DNA of 64,000 bases, taken from Deltaproteobacteria bacterium (GTDB taxonomy: Bacteria; Desulfobacterota; Desulfobacteria; Desulfobacterales; C00003060). The notes under the pieces were generated by a model that was not told the origin of the DNA, did not search any database, and was given only the letters and a program-made list of their open reading frames with translations. Position numbers and translations under genes: made by a program. The stretch's first letter is position 1. Every line of letters begins with the position of its first letter. The stretch covers positions 11,321-75,320 of the forward strand of contig JAFDKF010000018.1 in assembly GCA_019307135.1 (NCBI GenBank). Reading direction: 5' to 3'. Positions 49,554 to 56,865 of the stretch are shown here, one piece after another.

Positions 49554-50948
49554 ATGAGCGAACAAGAAAACACTGATCTATCCAGCCAGGGCACGGTGGT
49601 TTCAGTGCGGGGTAGCGTCATTGATGCTCATTTTCCGCGAAGACTTCCTTTCCTTCACAGCCTGTTGAAAGCTGGTGAAGACCTTGAGATAGCCATTGAG
49701 GTGCAAATCCATCTTAACTCCGAAATGGTTCGCGGTGTCGCGCTGAGACCGACCCGGGGCTTGGCCCGGGGTTCGCTGGTTATTGACACGGGGCAGTCTC
49801 TGATGGTGCCGGTGGGACCGCATTTGCTCGGCAGGGTATTCAATGTGTTCGGAGAAACCATTGACAGGAAAGGTGAAGTAAAAGAAGCAGAATGGCGCTC
49901 CATTCATCGTGAGCCGGTGCCCATCAACCAGCGGGCAACTACATCGGAAATTTTTGAAACCGGTATCAAGGCCATTGACGTCCTGGTGCCCCTGGAGCGG
50001 GGAGGAAAAGCCGGACTCTTCGGAGGTGCTGGTGTTGGCAAAACTGTGATCATTACAGAGATGATCCATAACATGGTGGGTCGTCATGAGGGGACCAGCA
50101 TCTTCTGCGGTATCGGTGAACGTTGCAGGGAAGGGGAGGAACTCTACCGCGACATGAAGGAGGCGGGTGTGCTGGACAACACTGTCATGGTCTTTGGCCA
50201 GATGAATGAACCGCCGGGTGCCAGATTCCGGGTGGGTCATGCAGCGCTGACCATGGCCGAATACTTCCGGGACAACGTCAAGCGTGACGTTTTGCTCCTC
50301 ATTGACAACATCTTTCGTTTTATCCAGGCCGGAGCAGAAGTCTCCGGCCTCATGGGGCAGATTCCGTCCCGGCTCGGGTATCAGCCGACTCTGGGAACGG
50401 AACTGGCGGAACTGGAGGAGCGAATCTGCAACACTGCAACCGGTGCCATTACTTCCATTCAGGCCGTGTACGTGCCGGCAGATGATTTCACGGACCCTGC
50501 GGCAGTTCATACCTTTGCTCATCTGTCTGCCTCCATCGTGCTATCCCGAAAAAGGGCCAGCGAAGGGATTTACCCTGCCATTGATTTACTCCAGTCTACC
50601 TCCAAAATGCTGACACCCGTTATTGCAGGAGAGAGACACTACCGTGTGGCCCAGGAGGTGCGTAGAACACTGGCAACCTATGAGGAACTGAAAGACATCA
50701 TTGCCATGCTTGGCTTAGAGGAGCTTTCACAGGAGGACCGCCGAATCGTCTACCGGGCCAGACGTCTTGAGCGCTTTTTGACCCAACCCTTTTTCACAAC
50801 AGAACAATTCACCGGATTGGCGGGAAAAATGGTGGATCCAAAGGACGCCCTGGAAGGATGCGAACGTATCCTCAATGATGAGTTCTCCGATTATCCGGAA
50901 AAGTCACTCTATATGATCGGAAAGGTCGACGAAGTGAAGAAGTTATGA
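49554..50948 (+). CDS. atpD: N-type F-ATPase beta subunit
   Basis: Track ORF of 464 aa with Walker A GGAGVGKT and a DELSEED-like loop ([11 protein letters not shown]). It is the first gene of an atpDCQRBEFAG array. Confidence 0.9.
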
Positions 50949-51328
50949 AACTCAAGGTGCTACTCCCAACCGAAGTTCTCATCGACAAAGAAGTGACCAA
51001 GGTGATTGCCGAGGCGGGAAATGGCTCTTTTTGCCTCTTGCCACGCCACATTGACTTCGTAGCTGCGCTTGTTCCAGGGCTTCTTTCCTTTGAGTCAGGC
51101 AAAGGCCGTGAAGAATTTCTAGCGCTTGACCAGGGAATCCTGATCAAGTGCGGCCCGGAGATCCTGGTATCAACTAGAAATGCTGTGCGTGGGCCTGACC
51201 TGGGAACGTTGAAACAAACGGTTGAAAAAAGCTTTCGGGTCCTTGACGATCGGGAGAAGATGGCCCGTTCCGCATTTGCCAAACTCGAGGCGAATTTTAT
51301 TCGCCGATTCATGGAGTTGGAAAAATAG
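50945..51328 (+). CDS. atpC: N-type F-ATPase epsilon subunit
   Basis: Track ORF of 127 aa with a 4-nt overlap with atpD and an epsilon-like N-terminal beta-sandwich sequence. Confidence 0.8.
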
Positions 51329-51336
51329 ACAAGCCC

Positions 51337-51666
51337 GTGAAAAAAAAGCGTTACCGAACATGCGAAGAACTGAGCGAGACGGTAGGGGCCAAAGAAGCCC
51401 GCAAGATAAGGGCGCGTCGTCAAAAACACGAGGGTGTCTGGTTCGGACTCGGCATGTTTGGCCTCGTGGGATGGTCGGTGGCCATCCCCACATTGGTAGG
51501 CATAGCATTAGGGATCTGGATAGATCTGAAATGGCCAGGCCGCTATTCGTGGACTCTTATGCTACTCATCATCGGCATCATGCTTGGTTGCCTGAATGCT
51601 TGGTTCTGGATTGCGCGTGAGCGAAACATGATTGGGGAGGACAAAGAGGAGCAGGGGTGTGGGTGA
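51337..51666 (+). CDS. atpQ: N-ATPase AtpQ (AtpI/ATPase_gene1-like small membrane protein)
   Basis: Track ORF of 109 aa with a basic N-terminus and two TM helices. It occupies the third position, as in N-ATPase operons. Confidence 0.7.
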   Translation: MKKKRYRTCEELSETVGAKEARKIRARRQKHEGVWFGLGMFGLVGWSVAIPTLVGIALGIWIDLKWPGRYSWTLMLLIIGIMLGCLNAWFWIARERNMIGEDKEEQGCG

Positions 51667-54042: not shown

Positions 54043-54436
54043 TCCGCAGATTACGCAGATTACATGGATTACATGGAATTGTTGGCATCCTTCATTCCTC
54101 GGTTTACACTTTTCAAGAATGCGGGCGCCAAGAGATAAATTCTTTTGTTCGTACTTTTTGGTGTCAGGTGTCAGGTGTCAGGAGCAAGAAACGCAAGATC
54201 TGTACTGTTCTCAAGGCGTAAGCCGCAAACCCGAACACTGAAACCAGGCACCAGGTGTCAGGTGTCAGGTGTCAGGTGTCAGAAACTGAAAAAGCAAGAC
54301 CTGTACTGTTCTCAAGGCGTAAGCCGCAAACCTGAACACTGAAACCTGAACACTGGTCAATAGGTGTAAACTACAAAATGAAGGATGCCGAATTGTTCTT
54401 TAATAATCTGCGAGAATCGGTGAAATCTGTGGATGG
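54043..54436. mobile_element. Composite ~390-bp insertion with ~60-bp imperfect terminal inverted repeats in the atpF-atpA spacer
   Basis: The arms are cgcagattac...ggcatccttcattcctcggtttacac and ggtgtaaactacaaaatgaaggatgcc...aataatctgcg. The interior holds two ~100-bp tandem units with caggtgt heptads and gaacactgaaacct. The flanking ~18-mers are ggattgagggattggggg and ggattgagaaattgggga. Confidence 0.7.
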
Positions 54437-54461
54437 GATTGAGAAATTGGGGAATTAGGGA

Positions 54462-55991
54462 ATGGAAGAAAATGCAGTACTGAAAACCTTTCTGGATGAT
54501 ACGTTCACGGCTTTTGATGGCGTGTTGGAGGGCTACAGGGCTGAGCTGAAGGGCCGGGAGGTCGGCACGATAAACTATATTGGCCAAGGGATCGCACGGT
54601 TAGAAGGATTGCCTGGCGTTAAATCGGAGGAGCTTGTCCGCTTTCACGGAGACGTATTTGGAATGGTTTTCAACGTGGATCCTTCTGAGGTAGGAGTCAT
54701 TCTGCTGGGCGAGAGCCAAATGCTGAAGGCTGGCACCGAGGCACGACGAACGGGACGGGTCCTGGACGTGCCGGTGGGTGACGCACTGATTGGCCGGGTT
54801 TTGGACCCCATGGGGCGTCCCCTGGACGACCTTGGCCCGGTGCGCACTTCAGAGCGACGTCCTGTCGAACGGGAAGCTCCTGAAATCATGGATCGCGATC
54901 CTGTCACCGTTCCCCTTCAGACAGGGCTCAAGGTGGTGGACGCCTTGATTCCCATTGGCAGGGGCCAGCGAGAGCTCATCCTTGGCGACCGGCAAACTGG
55001 CAAGACCGCTATCGCGCTGGATACAATGATCAACCAGCGAGATAAAGATGTACTTTGTGTCTATTGTGCTATCGGGCAGCGAAGCTCGTCTGTGGCAAAG
55101 TTCATCGAGGACCTCCGGAGGTACGGTGCCATGGGCTACTGTATCGTCATGGTAGCTGGGGGAGAAAATCCCCCTGGCTTGCAGTTCATTGCGCCATACG
55201 CAGCGACCACCATGGCAGAGTATTTTATGGAACAGGGACGGGACGTATTGATCGTGTATGACGATCTGACGCGCCATGCCCAGGCATATCGGGAGCTTTC
55301 ACTCCTGCTGCGTCGCCCTCCCGGCAGGGAAGCTTTTCCGGGCGACATATTCTATATCCATTCCCGACTCCTTGAGCGGGCCACCCATCTCCGAGAAGAA
55401 CTGGGGGGTGGCTCTTTGAGCGCCATGCCGATCGTGGAGACAGAGGCTCAAAACATATCGGCATATATTCCAACAAATATCATCTCCATCACTGATGGTC
55501 AGATCTATCTTGCCCCGGATCTATTTCAAAAAGGGGTGCTCCCGGCCGTGGACGTTGGCAAATCCGTGTCCAGGGTTGGGGGAAAAACACAGCTTGCCGC
55601 ATATCGCACCGTTGCCGGCGATTTGCGCCTTTCCTACTCGCAGTTTGAGGAACTGGAGACATTCTCCCGTTTTGGGACGCGTCTCGATGAGGAAACGCGC
55701 AAAACGCTGGATCATGGCCGCCGCGTCCGAGAGATTCTTAAACAGCCACAATATCAACCCATGTCGGTTTCCGATCAGATTGCTGTTCTTCTAACTGTGA
55801 CAGAGGGCGTCTTTGATCAGCTTCCACCGGATCAGATCGTGGGGGCCGAGCAGGTGGTACGCAAGGCTGTTACCAAAGAGCTGCCCGATCTTTGCACACG
55901 AATCCAATCCGGGGAGAAACTCAACGAGATGGATCGGGATGCCATTGTGGGCACCGCTGGGAAAGCGATCACCAACCATGCAAACGATTGA
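54462..55991 (+). CDS. atpA: N-type F-ATPase alpha subunit
   Basis: Track ORF of 509 aa with Walker A GDRQTGKT. Confidence 0.9.
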
Positions 55992-56865
55992 GTCACTGAA
56001 ACGCAAGATTAAGAGTGCGGAAGACTTGCACTCTGTGGTGAAGACAATGAAGGCCCTTGCTGCTGTGAGTATCCGGCAGTACGAGAAGGCCGTAGAATCC
56101 CTTGCCGAATACAACCGAACGGTTGAGATGGGTTTTCAGATCATTCTTAAACAGAAACCCCGGGGGGTCTCAATGGCCCAACCTGTGCTGAACGGACGCC
56201 TTGGCGCCGTGGTCTTTGGTTCGGACCAGGGCATGGTGGGACAGTTTAATGAAGTGATAGCCCGCTATGCGGCCAATAAAATGGATAAACTCCGGATCAG
56301 GGAAGAAAACCGTGCGGTGCTGGCCGTGGGTCTGCGAGTTTTTGCACGCCTTGAAGAGGCCGGACACCCGGTTGAAGGCCACGTTTCTCTGCCGGACTCC
56401 CTGGCTGCCATTACGCCCATCGTGCAGGACATGGTGCTGAAAATAGAGGCGTGGCGCTCCGAGCGTGAAATCGATCAGTTTGTCCTTTTTTATAACAGAC
56501 CGATCTCGGGTGCCTCCTATCGCCCCAACACCCTCTATCTTCTGCCGGTGGACCTGGGGTGGTTTCAAGACCTGGAACACAAACCATGGCCCTGCCGCTG
56601 CCTCCCTTTCTTTACCATGGATTGGAACAAGCTTTTTTCCTCATTGATTCGAGAATATCTCTTTGTATCCCTCTACCGCGCCTTTGCCGAGTCACTGGCC
56701 AGCGAAAATGCCAGCCGGCTCGCATCGATGCAGGCCGCTGAGAGAAATATCGAAGATCGTTTGGAAGAACTCAAAACTCAATTCCACCAACAGCGGCAGA
56801 GCTCCATTGACGAAGAACTCTTTGACCTGGTGGCTGGCTTCGAGGCGGTCACACAGGCAGGATAG
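55978..56865 (+). CDS. atpG: N-type F-ATPase gamma subunit
   Basis: The in-frame ATG at 55978 ([29 protein letters not shown]) overlaps the atpA end by 14 nt. The track ORF start at 55813 lies inside atpA. Confidence 0.85.

Follow-up and report, generated by a model that had tools for sequence, protein, structure and literature searches.

The closest described relatives of the locus reported here are the N-type, or 'alternate F1Fo', ATPases (N-ATPases), a family represented by the Methanosarcina barkeri operon (Sumi 1997) and described by Dibrova, Galperin and Mulkidjanian (2010). According to Dibrova et al. 2010, AtpR is the tell-tale protein of N-ATPase operons, and a fusion of the b subunit with the C-terminal part of delta is given as a hallmark of the family in PMC2881411, which cites Saum 2009 on this point. 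We analysed a 64-kb stretch of DNA (referred to below as the window) from an uncultured Deltaproteobacteria/Desulfobacterales-like bacterium. An open reading frame (ORF) scan, combined with a check of starts and stops, identified nine intact ORFs on the + strand at positions 49554-56865, in the order atpD-C-Q-R-B-E-F-A-G; the outer coordinates and gene order given in an earlier note on this DNA were exact. The locus is almost certainly a complete N-type ATPase operon. Our best explanation overall, which we favour with some reserve from the features of the sequence, is that a laterally acquired N-type operon encodes an ATP-driven Na+ export pump. The operon is a textbook example of a kind of system that is already known, and this instance has already been annotated: the label given to the alpha subunit in NCBI by the Prokaryotic Genome Annotation Pipeline is 'alternate F1F0 ATPase, F1 subunit alpha'.

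The NCBIfam 'alternate F1F0 ATPase' models, which come with curated cut-offs, were passed by all seven core subunits (Table 1). Against the canonical gamma model, TIGR01146, the gamma subunit obtained 126.4 bits and remained under the cut-off of 194.45. A further hallmark of the N-type operons was the presence of AtpQ (PF09527/TIGR02230) in place of AtpI. The beta subunit also cleared the general F-type model TIGR01039 (627.5 bits), and alpha and some of the other subunits likewise exceeded general cut-offs, as they would if the locus encoded an ordinary F-type ATP synthase with a rearranged gene order and not a member of a separate class. Such scores are, however, expected anyway for a subfamily of the F-type enzymes. 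The N-type 'exception' models scored higher and their stricter cut-offs were passed, the gamma subunit fell short of its canonical model, AtpR is encoded, an atpH gene is absent, and the phylogenetic trees set the locus apart from the F-type enzymes. An F-type identity with shuffled genes was rejected on these grounds, and we regard it as vanishingly improbable. The N-ATPase call of the earlier note was thus borne out by the gene order, AtpQ and AtpR, the lack of atpH, the N-type model scores, the phylogeny and the two-glutamate c subunit.

The AtpD scan, in which each species was represented by one genome, yielded 80 loci, and all nine proteins were then mapped onto them. The identity of AtpD to the other loci was bimodal (59-82% versus 52-55%). 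Among the 46 genome loci in the upper range, 43 had a recognisable N-type gene set. The gene order was D-first, as in the window, in 38 of the 46; one locus was permuted, four were incomplete or truncated by the end of their contig, and the remaining three showed no other subunit in the DNA around atpD. Loci in the 52-55% range followed the canonical arrangement B-E-F-(H)-A-G-D-C where further subunits were seen. Neighbour-joining analysis of beta subunits, rooted with alpha, united 44 N-type sequences, including the one from the window, in a clade with a bootstrap value of 92. The smallest distance between an N-type and an F-type beta subunit (0.61) was approximately twice that between the window and its nearest N-type relatives (0.29-0.32). 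The alpha tree, a crude outgroup-rooted neighbour-joining analysis, contained an F-type clade (bootstrap 93) without any N-type alpha subunit, while the bootstrap for N-type monophyly was 20%. The beta and alpha subunits of the window therefore fell outside the F-type clades, as the N-ATPase call had implied.

The residues expected of a working rotary enzyme were also retained. The Walker A motif and EELSQED were intact in beta, as were GDRQTGKT and SVSRVG (with the Arg finger) in alpha, and the stator Arg163 of subunit a (RLFGN motif) was kept in 43 of 43 loci. AtpR retained its two membrane arginines, numbered from the TTG start, in 33 of 33 (R58) and 29 of 31 (R88) loci, and AtpQ its Asp63 in 41 of 42. 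With its reading frames and its catalytic and stator motifs intact, the operon appears to be functional as far as its sequence indicates.

The earlier note had described the operon as having no delta subunit. This was correct with regard to a separate gene: when the six-frame ORFs of all 64 kb were searched with a hidden Markov model (HMM) derived from 18 canonical delta sequences, atpF alone was matched (E = 5.8e-5). The 430-bp spacer between atpF and atpA consists of repeat DNA, is too short for a delta gene and was not matched by the delta HMM, and an adjacent delta gene was ruled out as a candidate on the basis of the HMM result and the repeat nature of the spacer. The description did not hold for the C-terminus of AtpF, where a delta-like domain is present. 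AtpF is 258 residues long; the b subunits of 39 N-type loci have a median length of 265 residues, and those of solved canonical enzymes about 155-170. Its residues 179-245 matched the Pfam OSCP family (PF00213) with 24.7 bits (gathering threshold, 22.3), and hhalign against the 18 canonical delta subunits aligned AtpF 177-247 with delta 109-179 (96.8%, E = 2.6e-10). Judged by these domain matches, the b subunit is a b-delta(C-terminal) fusion without the delta N-terminal domain, and this fusion replaces a separate delta subunit. A fused delta had been counted against membership of the family in the earlier note; this was mis-specified, since the fusion is a family hallmark and supports membership.

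Direct translation placed Glu30 of the c subunit, AtpE, at 52830-52832 and the segment M61-V-E-S-T-A-I-Y68 at 52923-52946. In the alignment, Glu30 fell on Gln32 of Ilyobacter tartaricus (1yce) and on Glu32 of Fusobacterium nucleatum (3zk1), and Glu63-Ser64-Thr65 and Tyr68 corresponded to Glu65-Ser66-Thr67 and Tyr70 of both proteins. A glutamate at the helix-1 position of I. tartaricus Gln32, previously read by eye, was confirmed by translation and alignment. The helix-2 set had been given as V-E-S-T-x-x-Y; E-S-T-x-x-Y is present, but its V is Val62, which is equivalent to Ala64 of I. tartaricus and not to Val63. The position that provides the Na+-ligating backbone carbonyl (Val63 in I. tartaricus) is occupied by Met61 in AtpE, and by Met in nearly all N-type c subunits.

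Three c-rings described previously were compared with AtpE. The I. tartaricus c11 ring (1yce) shares with AtpE a collinear hairpin and the helix-2 E-S-T-x-x-Y motif, with 42% identity over 72 residues, and differs in having Gln32 and Val63 (the backbone ligand) where AtpE has Glu30 and Met61. In the F. nucleatum c11 ring (3zk1; Schulz et al. 2013), E32/E65/S66/T67/Y70 equal E30/E63/S64/T65/Y68 of AtpE in the phmmer alignment. The F. nucleatum enzyme is a canonical F-type synthase and the main enzyme of its organism, unlike the N-type locus, and its helix 1 has the pattern GxGxGxG, whereas that of AtpE reads G22-x-x-A25-x-A27-x-G29-E-A31. The Burkholderia pseudomallei N-type c17 ring has a two-carboxylate motif (Glu30 and the helix-2 Glu) and a Tyr one turn below, as in AtpE. 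Its helix-2 sequence is Glu61-Thr62-Met63-x-x-Tyr66 (PMC5376962), in contrast to Ser64-Thr65 of AtpE, so that the H+-type site is not matched.

The two-carboxylate site had been presented in the earlier note as a distinguishing property of this locus, but it is the norm in the family. The helix-1 Glu was present in 35 of 40 N-type c subunits sampled, and the identical E/E-S-T-Y set in 27 of 40. Dibrova 2010 likewise found the helix-1 Glu in nearly all N-ATPases, and its combination with ESTxxY in only about 1% of Pfam c subunits (PMC2881411). Helix-1 Glu together with ESTxxY is thus the default of N-ATPase c subunits and is not to be rated as unusual. The same combination was also observed in canonical-order operons of three metagenome-assembled genomes (MAGs), assigned to Magasanikbacteria (L054), Planctomycetota (L061) and Gammaproteobacteria (L065). 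Its presence there indicates that the Na+-type site with two carboxylates also occurs here and there beyond the N-type enzymes.

The coupling ion is probably Na+ rather than H+, and this preference comes from the ligand set shared with F. nucleatum and from the Thr62/Met63 difference in B. pseudomallei. On the same comparison, the previous opinion that the sequence does not reveal the ion specificity was too pessimistic, and Na+ is the better-supported ion. The F. nucleatum ring is Na+-coupled; its Glu32 is constitutively protonated, energetically equivalent to Gln and not co-transported (PMC3692424). Among the N-type enzymes, that of Aphanothece halophytica is reported to be Na+-coupled (Soontharapirakkul et al. 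2011, as cited in PMC5376962). According to the same citation, this enzyme, which comes from a cyanobacterial host, has been tested biochemically. A MAG of Halothece (L034), a halotolerant cyanobacterial genus, carries the same E/ESTxxY set in its c subunit, and its N-type AtpD is approximately 70% identical to that of the window.

The B. pseudomallei N-type c17 ring proved H+-selective, contrary to the prediction from its sequence (PMC5376962, Schulz et al. 2017). By analogy, the enzyme studied here could be H+-coupled and could use ATP to pump protons and maintain pH homeostasis, the role proposed for its B. pseudomallei counterpart. In favour of this alternative, the c17 ring is H+-selective even though it has two carboxylates, and Dibrova 2010 suggested that N-ATPases might pump H+ under low sodium (PMC2881411). 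However, the B. pseudomallei ring, with Thr62/Met63, lacks two elements of the Na+ site, the serine and the threonine that holds the water molecule, whereas AtpE carries the full set of the Na+-coupled F. nucleatum ring. We therefore consider H+ coupling at this locus rather unlikely.

In the mechanism that we propose, ATP hydrolysis by alpha3beta3 would drive the rotation of gamma-epsilon and the c-ring. One Na+ per c subunit would be carried past Arg163 of subunit a, and Na+ would be expelled from the cell. The ion would be bound by Glu63, Ser64, the backbone carbonyl of Met61, a water molecule held by Thr65 and a carbonyl oxygen of Glu30, and Glu30 would be permanently protonated and act like the usual Gln. 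AtpQ and AtpR would serve as accessory membrane proteins, with AtpR, which has two membrane Arg residues, a proposed chaperone of two-Glu c subunits.

On balance, the net physiological direction would be that of an ATP-driven pump working beside a normal ATP synthase, as suggested by a regularity at the family level and by a deletion experiment in Methanosarcina acetivorans. The argument for a pump role was given by Dibrova 2010 (PMC2881411). Deletion of the N-type operon of M. acetivorans left growth and ATP synthesis unaffected (PMC2881411), and N-type operons have been found only alongside a normal ATP synthase (Dibrova 2010; Koumandou 2014). This 'always a second copy' rule is an empirical regularity of N-ATPases and not a membership criterion. 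A tblastn search of the window with the nine subunits matched only the operon itself, apart from the cross-match between alpha and beta, so that these 64 kb contain no further atp operon. It is very unlikely that the N-type enzyme is the main or sole rotary ATPase of this organism, working as a Na+-driven synthase and breaking the rule.

A related explanation is that the same enzyme is reversible, or mainly a Na+-driven ATP synthase, and uses a sodium-motive force established by other complexes of this anaerobe; a large c-ring, with its high ion/ATP ratio, would permit synthesis at low driving force. The title of the A. halophytica study (ref. 20 in PMC5376962) calls that enzyme a 'Na+-dependent F1F0-ATP synthase'. 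The B. pseudomallei ring has 17 subunits, equivalent to 5.7 ions/ATP (PMC5376962), from which we infer that synthesis would be thermodynamically favoured at a low gradient. N-type operons are also frequent in syntrophs and sulfate reducers, and an Ech/Mrp-like ion-translocating complex is encoded in the window at 16536-21341. On the other side are the occurrence of N-type operons only beside a normal synthase (both surveys) and the absence of an effect on ATP synthesis in the M. acetivorans deletion, and the sequence holds nothing that distinguishes the two directions. By analogy with the systems named, we regard a mainly synthetic or reversible role as possible but doubtful.

Several points nevertheless weigh against the interpretation of the operon as a Na+ export pump. 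Two N-type enzymes are cited as characterised, and one of them, from B. pseudomallei, is H+-selective despite its two carboxylates. All c-rings are intrinsically H+-selective (PMC3692424), and Na+ coupling would for this reason require a large excess of Na+. The A. halophytica enzyme is described as an ATP synthase in the literature quoted by PMC5376962, which makes reversibility possible. Finally, the long structured atpE-atpF and atpF-atpA spacers described below could have polar effects or break up the transcript.

The distribution of the operon is best explained by acquisition as a unit through lateral transfer, a pattern that would correspond to the self-contained mobile operon described in 2010. 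This conclusion was drawn from the cross-phylum position of the nearest operons and the absence of common flanking genes. When the nine proteins were considered together, the nearest operons were those of a Planctomycetota MAG (63.7%), a Nitrospiria MAG (62.9%) and Ca. Scalindua (62.8%), and the Syntrophales operons ranked lower, at approximately 60% identity over nine proteins. None of seven flanking proteins recurred beside another N-type operon among the loci of the scan. The hosts of N-type operons included Cyanobacteria, Planctomycetota, Nitrospirota, Verrucomicrobiota, Acidobacteriota, Bacteroidota, Spirochaetota, several proteobacterial classes and Desulfobacterota. A compositional mark of recent transfer was looked for and none was found, as the GC content of the operon was 0.53 compared with 0.507 for the window. 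Dibrova 2010 likewise reports for other hosts that GC content is not distinct from that of the host.

Some cyanobacterial loci of the scan departed from the usual arrangement. In a Nostoc sp. MAG (L018), the N-type genes were permuted, with atpR-B-E-F-A-G located upstream of atpD-C-Q, and in three Pleurocapsales/Xenococcaceae genomes (L003, L006, L012) no other atp subunit was detected in the DNA around atpD. Dibrova et al. reported that the order is permuted in Persephonella marina, which is not a cyanobacterium, and that some cyanobacterial operons contain inserted genes.

The coordinates of all features are collected in Table 1. Proteins identical to those of the window were found in three NCBI MAGs, namely GCA_019306295.1 and the assemblies with the protein records MBW1793628 and MBW2331696, and the coding sequence of the operon was identical in a second MAG. 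In exact look-ups, the matches were a sister contig of 33.8 kb and short contigs from metagenomes. The sister contig (L001) showed no substitutions over 7.8 kb and four indels when compared with the window. The differences were confined to the atpF-atpA spacer and the atpD leader, and two aligned indels (28 bp and 9 bp) corresponded to spacer repeat arrays. Gene calls made independently on the sister contig matched the starts and stops of the operon. For atpR, the ORF finder had chosen a TTG at 51632; the GTG start, preceded by an AGGAG Shine-Dalgarno sequence, was preferred because of this sequence and of the gene call on the sister contig.

Table 1. Features of the N-type ATPase operon and of the non-coding DNA around it (positions in the window)
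Feature	Position	Strand	Description
Upstream region, probable 5' leader	49334-49553	+	sigma-70-like site 49336-49365
atpD, N-type F1 beta	49554-50948	+	464 aa; TIGR03305, 844.6 bits (cut-off 752)
atpC, N-type epsilon	50945-51328	+	127 aa; TIGR03166, 148.1 bits (cut-off 100.1); PF02823
atpQ ('gene 1'), small membrane protein	51337-51666	+	109 aa; TIGR02230, 143.6 bits (cut-off 46.7); PF09527
atpR, N-ATPase-specific membrane protein	51659-51979	+	106 aa from GTG; PF12966, 85.6 bits; TIGR03165, 75.6 bits
atpB, Fo a subunit	52034-52750	+	238 aa; TIGR03306, 354.4 bits (cut-off 302.1); stator Arg163
atpE, c subunit	52743-53021	+	92 aa; TIGR03322, 148.4 bits (cut-off 130.85)
G+C-rich hairpin	53034-53077	+	perfect 16-bp stem; inverted repeat I5, 100% complementary
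Miniature inverted-repeat transposable element	53089-53231	not assigned	143 bp; terminal inverted repeats GTGTCCATCCAGAAATGG / CCGTTTCTGGATGGACAC, ~18 nt
atpF, long b subunit	53255-54031	+	258 aa; TIGR03321, 278.9 bits (cut-off 224.7); PF00430 and PF00213
Delta-like C-terminal domain of AtpF	53783-53995	+	residues 177-247, from the translation; b part = residues 1-~160
atpF-atpA spacer	54032-54461	+	two copies of a 101-bp repeat; (GGTGTCA)n arrays
atpA, N-type F1 alpha	54462-55991	+	509 aa; TIGR03324, 850.7 bits (cut-off 750.5)
atpG, N-type gamma	55978-56865	+	295 aa; TIGR03323, 375.6 bits (cut-off 282.35)
Heptamer array sites (examples)	10249-10391, 13298-13422, 21834-21926, 25868-25993, 43238-43313, 49392-49540, 58995-59077		

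The oddities specific to this locus are non-coding only and consist of long structured spacers, one of which contains a miniature inverted-repeat transposable element (MITE) related to IS5. The spacer between atpE and atpF measures 233 bp, compared with a median of 3 bp and a longest value of 31 bp in 39 other N-type loci; that between atpF and atpA measures 430 bp, compared with a median of -4 bp in the same loci. The first of these spacers folds at -127.9 kcal/mol (z -11.3) and includes a hairpin located 13 nt 3' of the atpE stop and without a T-tract, an element without a counterpart in the spacers of other N-type operons, which are typically 3 bp long. The second contains 1.9 copies of a 101-bp tandem repeat bracketed by long inverted repeats (fold z -4.4). 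The region upstream of atpD includes a palindrome of 150 nt (49381-49531) with TCAGAAG-type heptamer repeats and the inverted repeats I2-I6, which folds at -83.9 kcal/mol (z -7.2); the sigma-70-like match in this region was at background frequency. At gathering thresholds, Rfam gave no match to the leader or the spacers, and only spurious miRNA-hairpin matches appeared at E<=1, so that a Na+ riboswitch or another known RNA was rejected for these regions. A consensus scan of the spacers for intrinsic terminators of the T-rich type found none.

The element in the atpE-atpF spacer is, to judge by its termini, a MITE related to an IS5-like insertion sequence, because the same inverted repeats bound a transposase gene in another contig. 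There, at positions 1339-3010 of L110, a 1.67-kb element with the inverted repeats of the MITE encodes a 465-residue transposase with DDE_Tnp_1 and DUF772 domains (IS5-like). In the metagenome collection, contigs with the repeat numbered at least 120 (L084-L203). The matches listed included 71 complete copies, mostly of 141-143 bp with a mode of 142 bp, and identical 6-bp TAnnTA direct repeats flanked 22 of 68 copies among them, compared with 3.8 in a permuted control. The element had no Rfam match, and a literature search with the terminal repeat sequence returned no relevant hit.

We read the spacer insertions as selfish or repeat DNA that is tolerated inside the operon. The hairpin after atpE may be a stabiliser of the mRNA 3' end for the c segment, an attenuator or an insertion resembling repetitive extragenic palindromes, and there is a small chance that it serves, together with the IS5-derived MITE, as a signal for mRNA stabilisation or processing and so increases the output of the c subunit. 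Alternatively, the operon could be a decaying or silenced lateral copy, in which the MITE and repeat arrays have broken the co-transcription of atpE, atpF and atpA and no complete enzyme is made. The lengths of the two spacers relative to the 39 other loci, and the very stable hairpins in both, are consistent with such a history. However, all nine frames are intact, the catalytic, stator and AtpR residues are conserved, Shine-Dalgarno sequences are kept 5' of both atpF and atpA, the coding sequence is unchanged in the second MAG, and the consensus scan showed no T-rich intrinsic terminator in either spacer. A silenced copy is thus very unlikely, and an intact operon with tolerated insertions remains our preferred interpretation.

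Heptamer arrays (TCAGAAG, AACCCTG, GGTTCAA and their complements) were observed at about 15 intergenic sites of the window, are widespread in the intergenic DNA of this genome and were often palindromic. We take these arrays to resemble the short heptamers that occur as tandem repeats in filamentous cyanobacteria.

Elsewhere in the window, the Ech/Mrp-like region comprises an Ech/Mbh-type hydrogenase-like or Mrp-like cluster, with matches to Proton_antipo_M, NADHdh (NuoH-like) and the Complex1_49kDa/NiFe-hydrogenase large subunit, and is preceded by a histidine kinase and sigma-54 regulator pair (13592-16500). This cluster could generate an ion gradient that interacts with the N-ATPase. Two regions, 22014-25336 and 40677-41883, are rich in stress genes and include two universal stress proteins and two Hsp20 genes, and more than 10 two-component sensor or regulator genes are distributed across the window. 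The gene content of this neighbourhood would fit an N-ATPase placed in a stress-response region.

With this locus the family, already represented in Desulfobacterium, Desulfobulbus, Syntrophus and numerous other lineages, gains one more host among the deltaproteobacteria. Its importance beyond cataloguing is small, as the automatic annotation was already correct and the locus offers no special handle on the open questions of the family. The family itself is still under-explored: the sources cited here mention two biochemically examined enzymes, with opposite ion specificities. The copy of the PDB that was searched contained no structure of an N-type holoenzyme, AtpR had no relative in it, and the b subunit matched canonical b subunits only.

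When the locus is set against the canonical F1Fo operon, in which atpH is present and the order is atp(I)BEFHAGDC, it differs in gene order, in the absence of atpH and in a gamma subunit that scores below the canonical cut-off. When set against the N-ATPase family, by contrast, it shows no difference at the protein level. The atpDCQRBEFAG order, AtpQ and AtpR, the long b subunit with a delta-like end and the AtpR arginines are all shared, as are the c-subunit Glu in both helices and ESTxxY, and the closest relatives are likewise cross-phylum. The difference from 39 other N-type loci lies in the DNA, where the atpE-atpF and atpF-atpA spacers are much longer and contain the MITE, the perfect hairpin and the heptamer arrays.

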